Source: Candidatus Saccharimonadales bacterium
Lineage (GTDB): Bacteria > Patescibacteriota > Saccharimonadia > Saccharimonadales > UBA4665
Direction of reading: 5' to 3'
DNA: 64,000 bases
NCBI GenBank assembly: GCA_035545275.1
Contig: DASZYT010000001.1
Location: 6,143 to 70,142 of the forward strand
In this document: positions 52,698-64,000 of the stretch, one piece after another
How the letters are laid out: each line of letters opens with the position of its first letter
Position numbering within the stretch: the stretch's first letter is position 1
Program-made: the position numbers and the translations under genes
The notes under the pieces: generated by a model
Told to the model about the DNA's origin: nothing
Seen by the model: the letters and a program-made list of their open reading frames with translations, nothing else
Database searches by the model: none

Positions 52698-53172
52698 GCT
52701 GTCTCTGCCTACACTGGTGGTGGGGCCGGCAGACCTGGTACATATCCGCCGTGAAGTAGAAGCGCTTGATGAGTATGTGCGGGCCGCCAGCTTGCGTGAG
52801 GGTGGCAAACCCACCGCTGCGCTACCGCGGCTAAGCCGATCGCTTGAGGCGTTAGCTCAGCAAAACAAACTCAACCTGCTGCAGGAAACCGACCGGGAAA
52901 CGCTTAAGTCGTTTTTGGGCGATATGCTCAAGCATGCGCCTGTAGTGCACGTCAGCTTCGCAGTTGATCCCTCGGCGGCTTTTACCACCAAAATAGTCAT
53001 GTGGTTTCGGGAAAATATTGACCCCGGTGTACTCATTCAAATAGGATTGCAGCCAACTATTGCGGCCGGCTGCGTCGTACGTACGCCCAACCATTACTAC
53101 GACTTCAGCCTGCGTCAATATTTCGCGAAGCACAAACACCTGTTGATTGAAAAACTGGAGAGCACGACGTGA
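52687..53172 (+). CDS. atpH: ATP synthase delta (OSCP)-like subunit
   Basis: 161 aa. C-terminal pattern ..[10 protein letters not shown]...[30 protein letters not shown].. resembles the OSCP C-terminus. Assignment also rests on its position between the b-like gene and alpha. Confidence 0.55.
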
Positions 53173-54596
53173 CGGATAACCGGCATTTTGACCGGCTTGT
53201 AGAAAGCGGCCAGCCCATCGGCGAAGTGGTGGCCATTGACCGCTTTTTGGTGCGAGTGCGAGGGCTGCATCCGGTAAACGTGCATGCGTTAGTGATGTTT
53301 CAGGATGGCAGCAAAGGCTTCGTACATCACGTGCTTGAAGACGAGGTGGTGATACTGCATCTTGGCATCACCAGCTTGACTGCCGGCATGACGGTGGTGG
53401 TGCAGCACCACGGTCTGGTATCTAAAGTGGGCAAAGATTTCGTCGGCCGGGTTGTGTCAGTGACGGGTGAACCGCTTGACGGCAAAGGGCCCATTGCTGC
53501 CGACGATGTATGGCCGGTGTTTAATGACGCACCGATGCTCTATGAGCGCGAAATGTTGGACACACAGCTGGAGACAGGCCTGACGGTTATCGACGAGCTG
53601 TTTCCTCTGGTGCGTGGACAACGTATGGCGCTGCTGGGCGACAGCAAATCCGGTAAGTCTACCCTAGCTACGCAGCTGGCACTAAATCAGAAAAACACCG
53701 ATGTTATCGTCATATATGTGCTGATAGCCAAACGCCGCAGCGATATCGACATGCTGCTCACGCGCCTGCAAGAAAATGATGCCATGAAGACGGCCATCGT
53801 GTTTGTGGCGACGGCTTTTGAATCTTTGGTGGTTAACTACTTGGCGCCGTACGTAGCGTGTGCCATGGGCGAATACCTGTGGCAAAAGTGTGATACCGAC
53901 GTCATGGTGATATATGATGACCTGACCGCGCATGCCCAGGTATATCGTGAGATTTCCTTGCTGTCCGGCACAAGTCCGGGGCGCGATAGCTACCCCGGTG
54001 ACATGTTTCATGCGCACTCGTCCTTGCTTGAGCGAGCCGGCAAACTGGCGCGTAACCACAAAACCTTCACCGCCTTGCCGCTCGTATTGGCGGCCGGTGG
54101 CGACATCACCGCCTATCTGCCCACCAACATTATGTCCATCACCGACGGCCAGTGGATTCTCGACATGAATGTATTTCGGGACACCATGCGGCCGGCCGTG
54201 AGTGTAGGACTGAGCGTTACCCGTGTGGGCAGTCGCGGACAGTCGACCCGACAAAAGCAGTTGTCTTCCTTGGCTACGCAAGCCCTCAACGCGTATCAAG
54301 AAGCGCAGCAGTTTTCGCACTTTGGCTCCGAGCTGGCACTCGCTGCACAAAAAGATTTGCAGCGGGGCAAACAACTGTTTGAGATCTTTAATCAGGCGCC
54401 CACCGAAACCTTTCCTATCATGAGCCAGGTGTTGATGCTCGATATCGTTCTAAACGCCCAGGACAACCAAGTGCTGGACCTGAAAGCCTTGAAGGCGCAG
54501 GTTACCGAGGCGGCTAGCCATATTACCAAAGACGATGAGTATGAAAAAGTACGTGACGAACTACGTACTAAAAGCACCGTGGAGCTCAAAAAATGA
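53169..54596 (+). CDS. atpA: F1 ATP synthase alpha-like subunit (short, divergent)
   Basis: GTGA start/stop overlap. Walker [10 protein letters not shown] (canonical GDRQTGKT), [23 protein letters not shown]; 475 aa. Confidence 0.85.
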
Positions 54597-54632
54597 TATT
54601 CAAGACTGATATTGCATTTTCTGATTTCGGGG

Positions 54633-54673
54633 GAGAGCAGCCCGAGCTGCGAATTTATTTCGCCCCCGGCGCG
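54633..54673. repeat. partial copy 3 of the two-hairpin repeat family (alpha-gamma spacer)
   Basis: GAGAGCAGCCCGAGCT GCGAATTTATTTCGC CCCCGGCGCG matches the hairpin-2 half of copies 1, 2 and 4 (inverted relative to copy 4). It is enclosed by CGGGGG/CCCCCG. Confidence 0.45.
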
Positions 54674-54750
54674 TTCAATCTGGGTTCCCTAAAAAGAGAG
54701 GATTCTTTTCGGGGTGAAGTAGGGGGTGGCCCCCTCTCAAGGAGGCGTCT

Positions 54751-56908
<2,158 letters not shown>

Positions 56909-56909
<1 letters not shown>

Positions 56910-56984
56910 TGGAGACAAGCCTACGGTTTTTCTCACCCAAGCCAGCAAAAAATGCGATTTTTGCTCGGGCTGCTCTTTTCCCTC
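56909..56984. repeat. copy 4 of the two-hairpin repeat family (beta-epsilon spacer)
   Basis: ATGGAGACAAGCCTACGGTTTTTCTCAC CCAAGCC AGCAAAAAATGCGATTTTTGCT CGGGCTGCTCTTTTCCCTC. It starts on the last base of the atpD stop codon. Confidence 0.6.
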
Positions 56985-57000
56985 TGTGCAGGAGTGAGGA

Positions 57001-57339
57001 ATGGTAAAACGACAGGATGCCAGCACCGGTGAAATAGTAGATGATAGCGCGGCATCCCAGACTGCTGTAGCCGGTAAGCCGTTTATGACGGTCAAAGTGT
57101 ACTCTCCCTTCAAAACGTACTTTGATGCGATTGCCGAGAGTGTCTCGGGCGAAAACAAGACAGGGCCGTTTGACATCCTGCCCCACCACCACAACTTTAT
57201 TACGCTACTTGAGCCTGGCGAATTGGTCATTCGCGGTAAGGATGTGGGGACCGTTGGCCAAAACGAACAGCGCATCCGCATATCTGGTGGCCTTATGCAC
57301 GTCAAGGCCGACAAAGTCGTCGTGTTCCTCGACGTGTAG
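57001..57339 (+). CDS. atpC: F1 ATP synthase epsilon subunit (beta-sandwich only)
   Basis: ..TVKVYSPFKTYFDAIAESVSGENKTGPFDILPHHHNFITLLEPGELVI.....IRISGGLMHVKADKVVVFLD. No C-terminal helical hairpin (112 aa). Confidence 0.7.
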   Translation: MVKRQDASTGEIVDDSAASQTAVAGKPFMTVKVYSPFKTYFDAIAESVSGENKTGPFDILPHHHNFITLLEPGELVIRGKDVGTVGQNEQRIRISGGLMHVKADKVVVFLDV

Positions 57340-57341
57340 GC

Positions 57342-58373
57342 TCAATCAGCGGCCCAGTAGTCGAAACCAAACGTACTACTGGCCGGTGCGGCCGATGTGG
57401 TACAGACGCTGAAGCTGGTCGTAGACCGGTTGATATAGTAATGCAAGCCAGCGGCTGCTGAGCCAACCGGCGTTATGATAACGTGCGGCGTGGCCGTAAA
57501 TGCTTGGGTAAATTTCACGGTTACAAAACAACCTGTGCCCGGGCCGCTGCCAGTACTAATGGTGATAGAGCCTGAGGTATCTGAGCCACTTACCGACGCA
57601 CTGCCGCCGCTGCCCAAGGCGGTGCCATAACTACGTGAAGGGTTAGGGCCGCCTGGAATGACATGATGTGTTAGCGTGAGGTCACCGTTGAGCTGCAAGG
57701 TACCCACGGTAAGTTGAGGGGCCGACACGGCACCCTTAAAGGTTCCGGTGCCGTTTACGGTCAGATTTTTCTGGGCCGTTAGGTTACCCTGCACACTTTG
57801 GTTGCCTACCACAGTTAGGTCTTTATTTATCTGCACTTGGTCAAAAACACTTGTACCCGACACGGTCAATCCCGCTAACGACAAGCTGCTGCCCACCTGG
57901 AGTTTGCCGGCCACCTGCAGGTCGCTGCGCACCAGTACCGTTCCGGCAAAAATAGCGTTGCTCTGCACATTCAGTATCTGTTTGGCATCCCCGACTGTTA
58001 CGTCGCTGTTGGCGAGCTGGTCCAGGGTGCTTTGGGAAAGGGTTTGTGTAGTGAGCGTTTTGTTATTGCGGTTGTGTAACACGGCCACAATCACTATGGC
58101 GGCCGCCGCCAACACCGATATCACGAACACAATCATATATATATTGAAACGATGTAATAGATTTTTTAAACGCGACTGGTGAGGTGGTTTGCCTGATGAC
58201 CCGGGAGTGGGCAAGCCGCTGCCCGCCTCGCCTGGTGCTGCGGCCACTGGGTCACTGCTGCCAGAAGAAGGTGTCGCTGCCGAGTTTTGCTCCACGACAG
58301 TGCTAGGCCCCTCTAGGGACTCTAGTTCGCTGCTATCCTGGTTGTCTTGCGGGTTTGAGCCAAACGCGTCCAT
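57342..58373 (-). CDS. type II membrane protein: disordered N-tail, TM, beta-helix-type repeats, possible H-type-lectin-like C-terminal domain
   Basis: TM IYMIVFVISVLAAAAIVIVAVL. Repeats ..LTVSGTSVFDQVQINKDLTVVGNQSVQGNLTAQKNLTVNGTGTFKG... End ..VTVKFTQAFTATPHVIITPVG...YYINRSTTSFSVCT... Confidence 0.6.
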   Translation of the reverse strand: MDAFGSNPQDNQDSSELESLEGPSTVVEQNSAATPSSGSSDPVAAAPGEAGSGLPTPGSSGKPPHQSRLKNLLHRFNIYMIVFVISVLAAAAIVIVAVLHNRNNKTLTTQTLSQSTLDQLANSDVTVGDAKQILNVQSNAIFAGTVLVRSDLQVAGKLQVGSSLSLAGLTVSGTSVFDQVQINKDLTVVGNQSVQGNLTAQKNLTVNGTGTFKGAVSAPQLTVGTLQLNGDLTLTHHVIPGGPNPSRSYGTALGSGGSASVSGSDTSGSITISTGSGPGTGCFVTVKFTQAFTATPHVIITPVGSAAAGLHYYINRSTTSFSVCTTSAAPASSTFGFDYWAAD

Positions 58374-58475
58374 GTATAGTCCTAATGCTTTACGTCCATA
58401 ATACTAGATTGACCTCAAAAGCGTAAACGGTTTGCCTTTTGGGGCTATTTGCAGCAAAATAATAGCCATAGGCTT

Positions 58476-59228
58476 ATGAAAAAAACACTGAGTGCAACGG
58501 TTTTAGGCATCATGTTAACAGTCGCGACTACCAGTGTGGCGTTTGCGGCCCAGTCTTCATCGTCCAGCTATCAGGTCAATGAAGTGTTTTTTGGTAGCGG
58601 TGGACAACTAAACGCTTGTTCGACAGGTTCTACGGGGTATTGCGCCAAAGAAAGTGCTGGCGAAACCACAGTAGGCAATACTAAAAGCACGAACTACCAG
58701 GCCCAAGCCGGCTTTAACACCGACCGCACGCCATATCTGCAATTTATCGTTAATAATGCAAGCGTAGACCTAGGAGTCCTTTCGGCCGGTGCGCCGCAGA
58801 CAGCTACGGCTACCTTTTCGGTCAAGGCTTACCTGAGCGATGGCTATGTAGTTACCACGGCCTCTGACCCGCCCGTAAACGGCTCATATACCATGAAAAC
58901 CATCACCTCTCCGTACACGGTAGATACGTCAAAAGAGCAGTTTGGCATTAACCTCGCCGCAAACAATAGTTGTGGCAGCGGCTTGCCGGCAAGTTTTGGC
59001 GCCAGTCCTGTGCAGGCTCCCAGCAGCACGTTTAGCTTTGGTGCGGCCCAGACGGGCTATGACACCGCGTGCCAATTCCGCTACAACAAGGGCGACACCA
59101 TTGCCTACTCCAGCAGTAGCTCCGGTGAAACAGACTATACCATGTCGTATCTGTTCAATATCACCAACCTTACCCCTGGGGGCACATACACCATGAACCA
59201 CGTGCTGGTGGCCACGGCCACGTACTAG
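58476..59228 (+). CDS. secreted beta-rich protein, family member 1 (250 aa)
   Basis: Signal peptide MKKTLSATVLGIMLTVATTSVAFA, S/T/G/A-rich mature part, ends ..LTPGGTYTMNHVLVATATY. Confidence 0.6.
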   Translation: MKKTLSATVLGIMLTVATTSVAFAAQSSSSSYQVNEVFFGSGGQLNACSTGSTGYCAKESAGETTVGNTKSTNYQAQAGFNTDRTPYLQFIVNNASVDLGVLSAGAPQTATATFSVKAYLSDGYVVTTASDPPVNGSYTMKTITSPYTVDTSKEQFGINLAANNSCGSGLPASFGASPVQAPSSTFSFGAAQTGYDTACQFRYNKGDTIAYSSSSSGETDYTMSYLFNITNLTPGGTYTMNHVLVATATY

Positions 59229-59308
59229 CGTGTGATATTTATGCCCTTGATTTAGCGTTTCGCTTAAGTTTATATAAGTTACAGGAATTTAAACAGCAGG
59301 GGGTGGCT

Positions 59309-60646
59309 ATGAGGAAATTACGTATAAAAGCATTTATGGCACTTGCAACGAGTGCATTGCTTATTGCTGGCTTAGTTTTAACCAAAAGTGTTTCCGCTAC
59401 CATACCAGGAACTAATGAGGGGGTAAGTATAAGTACTATAGGCGGTAGTCCTAATAATCTAGCGAATCAAGTGTCATTAAGCCAAAATGGTCGCTTTGCT
59501 GCATTTGCTTCGAAGGCCACAAACCTTGTAAATGAAACCGTAAGCGGCTCCTACGATGAGGTATATGTACGAGATAGGCTAAACGATACTACCACCCTAG
59601 CGAGTATCTCGTCGAGTGGTTTAGTAGCTAATGGAGATAGTGAAGACCTTATGTTGAGTGCGGACGGTAGATATGTGGTTTTTAAGTCTAATGCAAGTAA
59701 TCTTGGAAGTAATGGCTCAACTTATCATATATTTCTGCATGATATGCAAACAGGGGCCACACAAATTGTCGACACTAATAGTAATGGAGTAGCTGACGGC
59801 ACATATGGAAGCATGGAACCTTCTGTTAGCGCAGACGGTAGATATGTGGTGTTCTCTTCATTTTCAACGAATTTAGTTACTACACCCAGTCTGACTTCAC
59901 ACTCCTATTCCTATGTTTATCTAAAAGACATGCAAACGGGAACGGTTGAGCTATTAAGCATAGGCACAGGTGGATCGGCGCCTAATGGATCAAGTGGCTA
60001 CCCAAGGATTGATTGTGGCGGAGATGAGGTTGCGTTTTACTCTACAGCCTCAGACCTTGTCGCAAATGACCTAAATGGCCAAGAGGATGTCTTTCTGTAC
60101 GACCAAATCGATGGTACCACTAAAGACATTACAATTAGTTCGGATGGAAGCAGCACAATTAACTCCATCTCTTGTAATGGGGAGTATATGGGAGTGACCT
60201 CATATGCCACAAATTTAACCGCGGCTAACATATCTGGGAACATTGAGAGTGCTTATGAATATGATAGGCTTAATGACAAATTTACCCTCGCTTCTCAATC
60301 ATCGGACGGTATCTTGGGTAATGCCGACTCAAATGGTGCATTTGTAAGTAATGATGGACGTGTGGTGGCTTTTAGCTCAATGGCGACGAATCTAACTTCA
60401 AGCGACAATGATAGCAGTGGTTGGGATATATTCCTCAGAAACATTGAAACATCTACTACTGAGATGATCGATATCAATTCTAGCGGAGTACAGGCCAACG
60501 CACCTGCATATGCTCCCTCTCTTAGTGCTAATGGCAAATATGTTGGATATTCATCACCCGCTACTAACTTAATTTCGGGGTATGGATACACTAGTGGTCA
60601 AGGGGCTGCCTATGTATCGGAAACTGGAGTCGTAGACAATTATTAG
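59309..60646 (+). CDS. secreted beta-propeller repeat protein (PD40/TolB-like repeats)
   Basis: Signal peptide, then at least 6 repeats of the pattern S.S.DGRYVVF.S.A.NLV....NG..D(V/I)FL.D. Markedly AT-richer than its neighbours. Confidence 0.65.
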   Translation: MRKLRIKAFMALATSALLIAGLVLTKSVSATIPGTNEGVSISTIGGSPNNLANQVSLSQNGRFAAFASKATNLVNETVSGSYDEVYVRDRLNDTTTLASISSSGLVANGDSEDLMLSADGRYVVFKSNASNLGSNGSTYHIFLHDMQTGATQIVDTNSNGVADGTYGSMEPSVSADGRYVVFSSFSTNLVTTPSLTSHSYSYVYLKDMQTGTVELLSIGTGGSAPNGSSGYPRIDCGGDEVAFYSTASDLVANDLNGQEDVFLYDQIDGTTKDITISSDGSSTINSISCNGEYMGVTSYATNLTAANISGNIESAYEYDRLNDKFTLASQSSDGILGNADSNGAFVSNDGRVVAFSSMATNLTSSDNDSSGWDIFLRNIETSTTEMIDINSSGVQANAPAYAPSLSANGKYVGYSSPATNLISGYGYTSGQGAAYVSETGVVDNY

Positions 60647-60770
60647 GAAGTCATAAGTTGTGGATAACTTTTGAAAACGCTATTGCTTGCATACCATAAG
60701 CGTGATAGTATGCACACATACTCCATAAATAATAAAAAATTAAAAATAAATTACGGAGAAACAAACAGCA

Positions 60771-61928
60771 ATGAAAGCACTATTTTCTAAAGGCCGACGG
60801 CTGATTTACGGCGCAGTAGCAACCGCGTTGACTGCTGCAGTCGTTGTGCCTAATCTTCTAACTAGCTCAGTGTATGCCGCCCAGGTTACGAGTCGAAGCA
60901 TAGAAATAAGTTCATCTACAGCAGGGGCAACAGGTGTAAGCTACCAGGTTGGCTTCACCCCAGCGACTACTGCCACCACTATCCAAGCAATAATTGTTGA
61001 CTTCTGTAGTAATGACCCTATCATAGGGGATTCATGTACTGCGCCCACAGGATTCAGTGTGGGTACGCCAACTGTTACGGGTGTGACCGTCACGGGGCAG
61101 ACTGGTGGCACTTGGACGGCATCCTCACAGAACACGGGCCGGACACTTGAACTTGCCAATGGGTCCAGCACTGGTACGCCCAGTGGTGCCGTAACTTTTA
61201 CTCTTACTACGGCCACTAATCCTAACTTTGCCACTTGTGGTACGCCGGATACTCATCCAAACTGTAGCTTTTACGGCCGTATCCTTACATTTGCAACAAC
61301 CGCTAACGCCACTACATGGCTTGGGACCGCGAACGGCAGCGCTAACACCGGCTTTATTGACTACGGTGGTGTAGCTCTAAGTACCTCTGCAGTTATCAAT
61401 ATCACAGCCAAAGTCATGGAAACGCTGAGTTTCTGTGTCTACAACGCTACTTGTGGCGACGACCCGAGCTTTACTATCGGTCATGCCGTGGGTTCAGCGA
61501 CCGTGATCGACAGCTCTGCGGTAGATACTTCCAATGTCAAATTCGACATAGCTACCAATGCGCAGAGTGGCGCTATAATTCGCCTCAAGGGAGACACTCT
61601 TAAGAGTGGCAGCAACTCATTGTTGGCCGCTGGAGCAGCGGCTCAGACCATCGCTAATGGTGATACCAGCCATCAGTTCGGTGTACGCGTCTCTACCGCC
61701 GGTACTAACATAACAGCTACATCACCGTATAATGCGGCAGGATACGCCTTTGACACCTCTACGGGTGGCGAAAACGTTACCACTACATACGGCGATGACT
61801 TCGCCCATCTATCAGGACCTACCAACAGCTCTACCAGTACCATTACGTTTGCGGCCACTGCTGCCAACACCACGCCTGCTGGTACCTACACTGGTGCAGA
61901 ACAGCTCATTGCCACTGGTACGTTCTAA
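60771..61928 (+). CDS. secreted beta-rich protein, family member 2 (385 aa)
   Basis: Signal peptide ..LLTSSVYA. IIVDFCSNDPIIGDSC, ATNAQSGAIIRLKGDTLKSG, HQFGVRV, ends ..TPAGTYTGAEQLIATGTF. Confidence 0.6.
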   Translation: MKALFSKGRRLIYGAVATALTAAVVVPNLLTSSVYAAQVTSRSIEISSSTAGATGVSYQVGFTPATTATTIQAIIVDFCSNDPIIGDSCTAPTGFSVGTPTVTGVTVTGQTGGTWTASSQNTGRTLELANGSSTGTPSGAVTFTLTTATNPNFATCGTPDTHPNCSFYGRILTFATTANATTWLGTANGSANTGFIDYGGVALSTSAVINITAKVMETLSFCVYNATCGDDPSFTIGHAVGSATVIDSSAVDTSNVKFDIATNAQSGAIIRLKGDTLKSGSNSLLAAGAAAQTIANGDTSHQFGVRVSTAGTNITATSPYNAAGYAFDTSTGGENVTTTYGDDFAHLSGPTNSSTSTITFAATAANTTPAGTYTGAEQLIATGTF

Positions 61929-61943
61929 GCATAAGATATATGC

Positions 61944-63029
61944 ATGAGGCGTCTGTCGTTTAGATTGTCTTCTGCAAAGCTACTGTGCGTAGTAGTAGCC
62001 TCCATCCTAGTTGGTGCGGGGCTACTTTCGTTTGTGAATGCGGCTGGCAACCAGCTGCAAAACCGGTCTGTAGCCGTTACGGATACTACACCGGGGGTCA
62101 TAGCGGCCTACAAGCTGGCGTTTACCCCGCAAAATGATGCGAGTGAAATTATTGTGGACTTTTGTAGCGACAGCCCCCTGCCGGGTGATTCTTGTTCGGC
62201 CATTGGTGGTACTACCGTGCCGGATACAAGTGGTGTAACCACTACAGATGTCAGTAGCGTATCCGATGGCAGCACAGAGCACACACTGCGCATCGTGAAC
62301 CAAACACTTACCGCCGGTACGCCGTTTTCATTGGAAATAAATAACATCACCAATCCCACAAACGGCACCATATTTTTTGTGCGGATATATACCTACGCTA
62401 CCGGTGATTCAGCGGCCTACGTACCGCTTAACAGCACAACCACGTCGCCCACCGAGGGCAGCTACATAGATCACGGCGGCCTGGCGTTATCTGCCGGCAA
62501 GCTAATAAGTATTACCGCCATTGTACCGCCATACATACGGCTTTGCGCTGGTGTGACCATTACTGGCTACGATTGCTCGACCGCGACGGGTGACTACTTG
62601 CAGCTTGGCAATCTGTCCTCATCCCAGACGAGCAGTGCCAGCATCCAGCTGGTACTGGCTACTAATGCCCAAAGTGGCTATTCACTTCGGGTAACAGGCA
62701 ACACACTTACCTCTGGTAATGACGTGATACCACCACTGGCTAACAATGATATTGCGCGACCTGGGGTATCCCAGTTTGGCCTTAATTTGCGGGCCAACAC
62801 CACCCCTCCGGTTGGTGCCAACAAAACGGGCCCAGGCATTGGCACGATAAGTGCTAACTACAACCAGCCCGATTTCTTCCGCTTTGTGTCGGGCGATTTG
62901 GTAGCCTCGGCGCCAGCCCCAAGCGACAACAACAAATACACGGCAAGCTATATTGCCAACATCTCTAAAAGCCAGCCGGTCGGTGTATATGCCACGACTA
63001 TTACCTATGTGGCATTGGCAAACTTCTAA
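61944..63029 (+). CDS. secreted beta-rich protein, family member 3 (361 aa), paralogue of member 2
   Basis: Signal peptide ..LLSFVNA. IIVDFCSDSPLPGDSC, ATNAQSGYSLRVTGNTLTSG, SQFGLNLR, ends ..QPVGVYATTITYVALANF. Confidence 0.6.
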   Translation: MRRLSFRLSSAKLLCVVVASILVGAGLLSFVNAAGNQLQNRSVAVTDTTPGVIAAYKLAFTPQNDASEIIVDFCSDSPLPGDSCSAIGGTTVPDTSGVTTTDVSSVSDGSTEHTLRIVNQTLTAGTPFSLEINNITNPTNGTIFFVRIYTYATGDSAAYVPLNSTTTSPTEGSYIDHGGLALSAGKLISITAIVPPYIRLCAGVTITGYDCSTATGDYLQLGNLSSSQTSSASIQLVLATNAQSGYSLRVTGNTLTSGNDVIPPLANNDIARPGVSQFGLNLRANTTPPVGANKTGPGIGTISANYNQPDFFRFVSGDLVASAPAPSDNNKYTASYIANISKSQPVGVYATTITYVALANF

Positions 63030-63076
63030 CGCTTTGCTATAGTAATCAACAAATGAATTGGGGGAATAAAAACACC

Positions 63077-64000
63077 ATGATCCGTCAAAAGTTGGCTACT
63101 GCCATTGTGCTTGTTACTGCCATTATCGTAGGGTTACTGCCGGCAGTGCCGGTTAGCGCGGCTACTTCCAGTAGTGGCGGAGGCAACGGGCTCAAAATAT
63201 CCCCGGTACGTTCCGACCTTACCATTAGCCCCGGACAAAGTAAGACCATCAGTGTTGTCGTACAAAACGTTACCAGCTCAACGGCTAATCTGCAGGCCAT
63301 CATCAACGACTTTGTAGCGGGCACCGACGAATCTGGTGTGCCTAAAATATTGCTGAACCCGAACCAATATGCGCCTACCCACAGCCTAAAGCACTACATC
63401 GCTCCCATTGGCGATGTAAGCATTCCTGCCAACCAAAGCAAAGAAGTCAAGGTGACCATCAACATCCCCAAAGATGCCGCCGGCGGTGGCTACTTTGGCG
63501 TGGTGCGCTTTGCGCCTGCCTCTGCCGGTAAAGGTAATGTGTCGCTGGCAGCCAGTGTTGGTTCGCTTATTTTGGTGACGGTGCCCGGTGATATCAAAGA
63601 AAACATGACTATTGCAAGTTTTGATGCCCGCACCATCACTACGGACAAAAACGGCCAAGTTCATGAGCGTAGCAGCACTATCTTTACGTCGCCCAAAAAC
63701 ATCAACGCAGTGGTGCGCTTCAACAACCAGGGTAATGTCCAAGAGCAGCCGTTTGGCAAGGTAGAGCTCAAAAACCGCTCAGGGAAGGTACTGGCTACGT
63801 ATGAGATTAACAACACCACACCGCGCGGCAACGTCTTGCCCAGCAGTATCCGCAAATTTGCCGTGCCGCTCACCAAGGTCGGGTCCTTTGGCAAATATAC
63901 GCTGGTAGGCAACTTCGGTTTCGGCAGCAAAGGTCAGCTACTGACCGCCAAGACTTCCTTCTACGTCATCCCACTCGGGCTTATCATAGGCTTGATAGTA
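63077..64000 (+). CDS. cell-surface protein resembling the DUF916/DUF3324 component of Gram-positive WxL (csc) loci; 3' end outside the window
   Basis: ATG 63077; the frame is open to nt 64000 (308 codons). Signal peptide ..LLPAVPVSA. ..LKISPVRSDLTISPGQSKTISVVVQNVT.., ..VSIPANQSKEVKVTINIPKDAAGGGYFGVVRF.., and a hydrophobic YVIPLGLIIGLIV at the edge. Confidence 0.6.
   Translation, partial: MIRQKLATAIVLVTAIIVGLLPAVPVSAATSSSGGGNGLKISPVRSDLTISPGQSKTISVVVQNVTSSTANLQAIINDFVAGTDESGVPKILLNPNQYAPTHSLKHYIAPIGDVSIPANQSKEVKVTINIPKDAAGGGYFGVVRFAPASAGKGNVSLAASVGSLILVTVPGDIKENMTIASFDARTITTDKNGQVHERSSTIFTSPKNINAVVRFNNQGNVQEQPFGKVELKNRSGKVLATYEINNTTPRGNVLPSSIRKFAVPLTKVGSFGKYTLVGNFGFGSKGQLLTAKTSFYVIPLGLIIGLIV

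Follow-up and report, generated by a model that had tools for sequence, protein, structure and literature searches.

Introduction

The window analysed here, a stretch of 64,000 nucleotides (positions 1-64,000) from a metagenome-assembled genome (MAG) of a Candidatus Saccharimonadales bacterium, carries at its right-hand end six consecutive genes, g1 to g6 (57342-64000). With a probability of about 0.85, we take these genes to be the core pam operon of this member of the candidate phyla radiation (CPR; Patescibacteria), encoding a donor-strand pilus that depends on a chaperone but not on an usher. A preprint of 2026 (Troman et al., bioRxiv 10.64898/2026.03.03.709456) described the Pam pilus by cryo-electron microscopy (cryo-EM) of the thin filaments that are formed by Ca. 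Mycosynbacter amalyticus, a parasite of the class Saccharimonadia, and the NCBIfam models NF058578, NF058579 and NF058581 trace to this work. The locus is a further example of this already described system and not a new one. An earlier sequence-only reading of the same DNA had stated that no equivalent was described, which is outdated now that the pilus is published and NCBIfam models exist. The core of that reading, namely pilin paralogues of the donor-strand type that are built without a sortase and without an outer membrane, with the help of a membrane-anchored DUF916-like chaperone, is supported by several lines of evidence: NCBIfam Pam matches on all three paralogues, the cryo-EM structures of homologues, Foldseek matches of g6 to WxLIP and to chaperones of chaperone-usher systems, a DUF916 Pfam match, and an hhalign value of 97.9% between the chaperone family and WxLIP.

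In the solved PamA and PamB filaments (2.8 and 3.6 Å), one subunit donates the linker that joins its N- and C-terminal domains and so completes the C-terminal domain of the next, and the linker and its groove form the most conserved region (10.64898/2026.03.03.709456). Further parts were proposed with AlphaFold and Foldseek, including the pilin PamE, the single-domain tip protein PamT and the tether PamR (RbmA-like), and PamC and PamD were proposed to be PapD/FimC-like chaperones with a C-terminal transmembrane (TM) helix (10.64898/2026.03.03.709456). The family was reported from CPR genomes only, beside the ATP synthase and a tail fibre-like gene, with no usher or envelope-spanning machine (10.64898/2026.03.03.709456).

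Pilins and their conserved strands

Three of the six proteins are members of the Pam pilin families. Against NCBIfam release 20 (cutoffs of 240 bits for NF058579 and 55 bits for NF058581), g2 (58476-59228, + strand) passes the equivalog model NF058579 (CPR_pilus_PamT, 'CPR-type pilus protein PamT') with 293.9 bits over residues 5-250 and is hereafter referred to as PamT, the single-domain tip pilin. The C-terminal domain described by NF058581 ('Pam pilus system pilin subunit') is found in PamT with 141.8 bits, in g4 (60771-61928, + strand) with 83.9 bits and in g5 (61944-63029, + strand) with 170.2 bits; these are the only three open reading frames (ORFs) of the window with a Pam domain. g4 and g5 are 30% identical over their full length (E 5e-28) and are, as had been recognised from the sequence, clear paralogues. 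PamT and the C-terminal 96 residues of g5 are 31% identical (E 5e-9), and the pairwise comparison of PamT with g4 is not significant. Between the three pilin families, hhalign gives 99.8, 99.4 and 98.2%. Judged from these sequence comparisons, the paralogy of PamT, g4 and g5 is far beyond chance, and the proposal that these three genes are related, each with a signal segment and a composition rich in Thr, Ser, Gly and Ala (T/S/G/A), agrees with their topology, composition, NF058581 matches and hhalign values.

PamT has a signal segment, four Cys residues and only the presumably truncated immunoglobulin (Ig)-like Pam C-terminal domain, without an N-terminal sandwich domain. g4 (385 aa) has, after its signal peptide, a predicted N-terminal beta-sandwich that a linker joins to the C-terminal Pam domain, and contains 6 Cys residues; its N-terminal domain scores 88 bits and its C-terminal domain 123 bits with the corresponding hidden Markov models (HMMs). 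Both g4 and g5 match the N- as well as the C-terminal domain profile. The number of Cys residues is even in each of the mature pilins. In M. amalyticus, the genes follow the order PamB-PamR-PamD-PamE-PamA-PamT with consecutive GenBank identifiers, and PamE, PamA and PamT have masses of 38.6, 55.3 and 25.6 kDa, respectively (10.64898/2026.03.03.709456). By analogy of position and size, g4 would occupy the slot of PamA (the major pilin), g5 that of PamE and g6 that of PamD.

Conservation was calculated in 12-residue windows on about 80 homologues per family (79 for g5), and invariance in g5 on 29 homologues. The inter-domain linker of g4 (ITAKVMETLSFC, residues 211-222, 61401-61436, + strand) is the most conserved window of its family, and the linker of g5 (ITAIVPPYIRLC, residues 190-201, 62511-62546, + strand) is the third most conserved, with V194 and P196 being invariant. 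This matches the pattern in PamA and PamB and supports the linker as the donor strand; by analogy with the solved filaments, both linkers are candidate donor strands, and these proteins would likewise engage in donor-strand exchange. The common C-terminal strand that closes with an aromatic residue, a feature already pointed out in the sequence-only reading, is real: in g5 (VGVYATTITYVALANF, 62979-63026, + strand; equivalents: PamT, 59178-59225; g4, 61878-61925) it ranks second in conservation among the windows, F361 at its end is invariant, and the QFG(L/I)NL strand is also among the most conserved windows of the pilin families. In the solved PamA and PamB filaments, it is the inter-domain linker that is donated and not the terminal strand. 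This terminal strand is more likely an F-like edge of the groove that receives the donor, and its terminal aromatic residue and carboxylate would probably serve as the anchor for the chaperone. The suggested kinship with Csu/SCPU-type pilins survives in part: a donor-strand type of assembly is in agreement with the cryo-EM structures of homologues, but membership of the Csu/SCPU family is not borne out, with no such Pfam match to the pilins at E<=1.

Within PamT, residues 32-43 (58569-58604) form a strongly conserved N-terminal segment, YQVNEVFFGSGG, and residues 84-91 (~58725-58748), located just ahead of the C-terminal domain, contain 'TPYLQF', which resembles the 'PPY(L/I)xF' linker of the two-domain pilins. 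One or other of these segments could be a self-complementing or chaperone-binding strand. An alternative TTG start codon for PamT is present at 58449.

The membrane-anchored chaperone

The only chaperone gene in the window is g6 (63077-64000, + strand), which is cut by the window end. Its full-length form is available as a 100%-identical NCBI protein of 346 aa (P0121), which ends about 93 nt past base 64000. In the NCBI record this protein is named 'DUF916 domain-containing protein' and g5, which is 100% identical to the MAG protein VHD60_00370 of Ca. Saccharimonadales, encoded on an 86.6-kb contig, merely 'hypothetical protein', so that the annotation of both can be improved. g6 has a signal segment, a C-terminal TM helix (residues 308-326, from ~63974) and a basic tail. 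Two start codons are candidates, ATG 63053 (used by NCBI) and ATG 63077 (preferred in the sequence-only reading), the latter with a Shine-Dalgarno-like GGGGGA run about 10 nt upstream.

The Pfam family WxLIP_PGBD (formerly DUF916, PF06030) is matched by g6 with 36.6 bits (threshold 27.3), and the DUF3324 half has no Pfam match. An AlphaFold2 (AF2) model based on a 32-sequence alignment has a predicted local distance difference test (pLDDT) score of 86.3 and shows a pair of beta-sandwich domains with a long helix at the C-terminus (residues 308-345). In a Foldseek comparison with the PDB, the model is matched best by Enterococcus faecium WxLIP, both alone and in complex with a long WxL protein (9i1y/9i25; E 2.6e-11, TM-score 0.45-0.58), followed at family level by CfaA, CsuC, FimC, Caf1M and DraB, all of them chaperones of chaperone-usher systems (E 1e-8 to 1e-6). 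For a profile comparison, a WxLIP alignment was built from ten Firmicutes plasmid loci, which were used instead of a search with an EfmWxLIP1 fragment that gave only truncated Enterococcus proteins. With this alignment, hhalign gives 97.9% (E 5.9e-13) over 225 columns that span both domains of the Pam chaperone family. The PamD-slot chaperone and the Firmicutes WxLIP are demonstrably homologous, and the description of g6 as a DUF916/DUF3324 protein with two Ig-like segments and a C-terminal TM helix was correct, as judged from Pfam (for DUF916), Foldseek and hhalign.

One segment of g6 may point to how the chaperone acts. In VSLAASVGSLILVTVPGDI (residues 163-181 of P0121, 63539-63595, + strand), a dip in pLDDT at residues 159-162 is followed by a strand with alternating hydrophobic residues (169-177), and 32 homologues all share S168, V169, S171, L172, V177 and G179 in this strongly conserved segment. 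In the model this strand is a candidate G1-like complementing strand. For WxLIP, a loop has been predicted to become a strand that completes the WxL sandwich (PMC10599100), which is the same principle as complementation by a chaperone.

Synteny and neighbouring genes

GTDB species genomes, among which the source MAG is not included, were scanned with g5, giving 488 relatives, and 80 loci were fetched, all of them from CPR (Saccharimonadia/Patescibacteria) or unclassified MAGs. The order atpAGDC, a g1-like gene on the - strand, PamT, one to four g4-like pilins, a g5-like pilin and the chaperone is kept in nearly all 80 loci and also in L081, the closest relative fetched, where Pfam ATP-synt families lie upstream. 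In the window, the ORFs for the ATP synthase subunits alpha, gamma, beta and epsilon (53169-57339, + strand) form the corresponding left-hand neighbour that is conserved at pam operons, and atpA, atpG, atpD and atpC precede the locus in most of the 80 loci as well as in L081. PamT is the first gene of the + strand operon in the related loci, and the g5-like pilin always stands directly before the chaperone.

A PamR homologue follows the chaperone, usually within 100 nt, in 70 of the 72 loci with enough sequence. As judged from this gene order, PamR is probably located just beyond base 64000 here. In L049, PamR (NF058578, 402 bits) lies next to the chaperone and is followed by mnmA; relatives of this type indicate that many Saccharimonadia carry only a five-gene core. 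This core, consisting of PamT, a variable pilin, a conserved pilin, one chaperone and PamR next to the ATP synthase, is near-universal in the 80 loci. In four loci (L015, L018, L043 and L060) two chaperone genes are found in the order pilin-chaperone-pilin-chaperone, as opposed to the single one in the window and in most relatives.

The slot before the g5-like pilin is the variable part of the operon: it holds 1-4 copies with lengths from about 360 to about 940 aa (L001-L080; for example L002 5767-8586, L006 145-2355 and L028 4347-9915), and its scores against the window protein are far below those of g5, PamT, the chaperone and g1. From these comparisons, the g4 slot appears to be the fastest-evolving and copy-number-variable one, a pattern expected of a host-facing shaft subunit.

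All six ORFs were found with the boundaries of the sequence-only reading, and its view that six neighbouring genes all encode exported or membrane-anchored proteins holds for each of g1 to g6 by ORF and topology analysis. Hydrophobicity, composition and motifs were checked in all six proteins: one N-terminal hydrophobic signal segment is present in each of g2, g3, g4 and g5, and T/S/G/A residues make up a fraction of 0.42-0.53 of g1-g5 and of 0.33 of g6, compared with 0.23-0.27 of the adjacent ATP synthase subunits.

g1 (57342-58373, - strand), a 'tail-fibre-like' protein, is transcribed divergently from PamT. It has a single internal TM segment (residues 81-99), in agreement with its proposed type II membrane topology, which separates an N-terminal cytoplasmic region from repeats that resemble a beta-helix and from a C-terminal domain that contains 2 Cys residues. 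The sequence-only reading had called it lectin-like, a label that is tentative at best, since the literature speaks of a tail-fibre-like protein and the matches obtained were weak ones only: that to Bactofilin is below the Pfam threshold (25.4 versus 27.9 bits), and that to a tail-fibre PHROG is weak (E 0.002). [quoted passage not shown]

Between PamT and the first pilin lies g3 (59303-60646, + strand), which encodes an exported PD40/TolB-like beta-propeller protein (Pfam PD40, 43.1 bits). This propeller had been counted as part of the locus, but it has no counterpart in the 81 related loci (the 80 and L081). On this comparison, g3 is best regarded as a recent, lineage-specific insertion and not as a core pam component, and it illustrates that accessory genes can insert into a pam operon. 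The GC content is 0.475-0.48 over 58000-62000 (PamT, the PD40 gene and g4) and 0.51-0.57 elsewhere in the window, a dip that could be explained either by the coding bias of T/S/G/A-rich proteins or by more recent acquisition. A scan for promoters and terminators gave sites that are no more numerous than in shuffled sequence.

Model for assembly

The following model carries filament formation and linker donation over from the cryo-EM structures of homologues, and from the data above we infer the subunit order, the strand assignments in PamT, g4, g5 and g6, the presence of PamR and the role in host attachment. All Pam subunits would be exported via Sec. The membrane-anchored g6 protein (PamD slot) would provide a complementing strand to each pilin and thereby cap its incomplete Ig-like C-terminal domain. 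PamT, which lacks an N-terminal domain and linker, would start the fibre at its distal tip. Next, the two-domain pilins would be added one after another, each donating its inter-domain linker into the groove of the C-terminal domain of the preceding subunit, with the variable g4 (PamA slot) probably forming the exposed shaft and the conserved g5 (PamE slot) the proximal part. As the predicted proximal subunit, g5 would receive the N-terminal strand of PamR, predicted to be encoded beyond the window end, by which the fibre would be tethered to the membrane. The likely function of such a fibre is to reach and attach to a host bacterium.

Strength of the assignment and alternative explanations

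Several points weigh against the assignment of the locus as a pam operon or against its details. The chaperone mechanism, subunit order and anchoring of the Pam pilus are themselves AlphaFold-based proposals in a preprint that is not peer reviewed (10.64898/2026.03.03.709456). The PamA, PamE and PamD assignments made here are analogies by position and size only, and g4, with its 385 aa, is much smaller than the PamA protein of M. amalyticus (55 kDa). The window does not include PamR. For g5, the AF2 model (29-sequence alignment) has a mean pLDDT of 61, with about 70-88 in the N-terminal beta-sandwich, but below 50 in the C-terminal domain, the linker and the C-terminal strand, and its Foldseek matches are generic two-Ig-domain proteins (integrin legs, MSCRAMMs and BslA; TM-score about 0.2), which were discarded as uninformative. 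The truncated-Ig fold of the g5 C-terminal domain is accordingly taken from homologues, the model here being of low confidence. That the model is poor in just the linker, the C-terminal domain and the terminal strand would fit an incomplete fold, but a shallow alignment would explain it equally well. Finally, a comparison of the three pilins and the g5-family profile with PDB sequences, in a set without the Pam structures 25PZ and 25QA, gave nothing meaningful.

Of the other explanations, the one that fares best, although we consider it unlikely, is that the locus encodes a surface complex of the WxL/Csc type and not a pilus, with a WxLIP-like protein holding non-polymerising surface proteins on the envelope, an arrangement suggested for WxL clusters in Firmicutes. 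That g6 is a true WxLIP homologue (by Pfam, by its likeness to 9i1y/9i25 and by the hhalign value of 97.9%) and that the layout of the loci is parallel would fit this explanation, and so would part of the comparison between the pilins and WxL domains. Compared by eye with a 25-sequence WxL alignment, the pilins show three motifs in matching order: an 'xxFG' strand, a 'G-Y-x-L' that resembles the first 'G-W-x-V/L', and a C-terminal 'Y..TLTY' that resembles 'Y..TLTW'. In the g5 family, no segment other than the C-terminal strand aligns with the strand of the second WxL motif (hhalign score 24.2, probability 6.5%), and in a block-shuffle test none of 120 controls reached the score of this family. 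PamT (reached by 24 of 120 controls) and g4 (13 of 120), on the other hand, were not above the null. Comparisons of the pilin C-terminal domain with WxL by hhalign reached 0.14% with a single sequence and at most 6.5% with the 25-sequence profile, the latter over the last two strands only, and two of the three pilin families gave no signal against the WxL profile. No WxL domain (PF13731) is matched in g1-g6 at E<=1, PamT and g5 contain no Trp residue, and no LPXTG protein is present; moreover, homologues of these families have been seen as filaments by cryo-EM. With these weak profile scores and the lack of PF13731, the resemblance between the C-terminal domain of the pilins and WxL domains was taken as no more than suggestive. 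The pilins are thus without a match to ordinary csc/WxL domains (Pfam at E<=1; hhalign at most 6.5%), and in view of the weak statistics the locus was not filed as a WxL cluster.

It is very improbable that g1 to g6 are a run of unrelated secreted or cell-wall proteins, such as S-layer-like proteins or adhesins, which resemble one another in composition and form no assembly system. A T/S/G/A-rich, beta-rich composition does inflate weak similarities, and the g5 model is of low confidence, but scores with curated HMMs are far above their cutoffs, hhalign values between the families reach 98-99.8%, the gene order is almost invariant over 80 species-level genomes, and homologues form filaments of known structure. 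NCBIfam scores, synteny and inter-family comparisons effectively refute this explanation.

Least probable of all is a classical chaperone-usher operon (Csu/SCPU or Pap/Fim) gained from a diderm: the likeness of the g6 model to CfaA, CsuC, FimC and Caf1M (E 1e-8 to 1e-6) and the conserved C-terminal pilin strand with its closing aromatic residue recall such systems, but no usher gene exists in the conserved neighbourhood of the 80 loci (tail-fibre-like gene, PamT, pilins, chaperone, PamR and then housekeeping genes), no PapD, Fimbrial or SCPU Pfam family is matched in g1-g6 at E<=1 so that the likeness is one of fold, the chaperone has a membrane anchor and resembles WxLIP more closely, the pilins would, as in the solved filaments, be two-domain proteins with an internal donor strand, and the family is found in CPR genomes only. 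A sortase-assembled pilus was likewise considered and rejected: as previously noted from the sequence, which had made sortase assembly seem unlikely, none of the six proteins g1-g6 contains an LPXTG motif, and no sortase is found among the conserved neighbour genes of related loci, including L081.

Comparison with known systems

The closest known system is the Pam pilus of M. amalyticus. With it, the locus shares the protein families, probably the two-domain plan of the pilins, a TM-anchored PapD-like chaperone, the order PamT/pilin/pilin/chaperone and the neighbourhood of ATP synthase and of a tail-fibre-like gene. Both also belong to the class Saccharimonadia and lack an usher and a sortase. 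Unlike in M. amalyticus, a PD40 gene follows PamT, and the window contains no gene for PamB, PamC (the second chaperone) or PamR. In the preprint, Table S1 lists pamC as QHN42421.1, a protein of 119 kDa encoded next to pilM (QHN42422.1) (10.64898/2026.03.03.709456). This size does not fit a PapD-like chaperone of roughly 37 kDa, and it looks like QHN43268.1 (36.5 kDa), which adjoins PamB (QHN43269.1), is the intended PamC.

Chaperone-usher pili (Pap/Fim, CFA/I, Csu and Caf1) are similar in that incomplete Ig-like subunits are completed by a strand of a neighbour, in the conserved C-terminal strand of their subunits, and in their two-domain Ig-like chaperone. In contrast, the Pam system has no usher and no outer membrane, and its chaperone is tethered to the membrane. 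The donor is an internal linker and not an N-terminal extension, an additional N-terminal sandwich domain is present, and the fibre is extended and not coiled (10.64898/2026.03.03.709456).

In WxL clusters, WxLIP is composed of DUF916, DUF3324 and a TM segment (Hassan, Chaudhuri & Williamson 2023, PMC10599100), and the chaperone of the Pam system is homologous to it over both Ig-like domains and shares the C-terminal TM helix. The layout is similar too, in that a short client of a single domain occurs with a long one that carries this domain at its C-terminus, and with an anchor to the membrane or wall. The WxL plasmid loci (L082 1643-6249 and L085-L093), which come from Enterococcus, Listeria, Bacillus, Lactococcus, Melissococcus and Vagococcus, contain 1-3 short WxL proteins together with WxLIP and a long WxL protein, and often also a small protein with LPXTG, an arrangement that parallels PamT, the pilins, the chaperone and PamR. 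The two systems differ in their clients, which here are Pam pilin domains without PF13731 or Trp-x-Leu motifs and without an LPXTG protein, and WxL proteins are described as peptidoglycan-bound surface proteins and not as filaments (PMC10599100). In the searchable texts, the Pam preprint mentions neither WxL nor DUF916 (10.64898/2026.03.03.709456) and the WxLIP paper mentions neither chaperones nor pili (PMC10599100), so that the link between the two is drawn in neither.

As a tentative idea, which we regard as possible though doubtful, Pam pili and the WxL/Csc clusters of Firmicutes might be two branches of an ancient monoderm system of chaperones without an usher, whose clients are possibly homologous as well. 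If so, the C-terminal domain of Pam pilins would represent a WxL domain with Tyr in place of Trp, with the 'FG', 'G-[WY]-x-[LV]' and 'Y..T-L-T-[WY]' strands in the same order, and donor-strand complementation might serve to assemble, or even to polymerise, WxL proteins as well. The homology between the Pam chaperone and WxLIP ties a new CPR pilus to large and poorly understood surface clusters of Gram-positive bacteria, and it provides a testable idea for both: strand complementation by a membrane-tethered chaperone.

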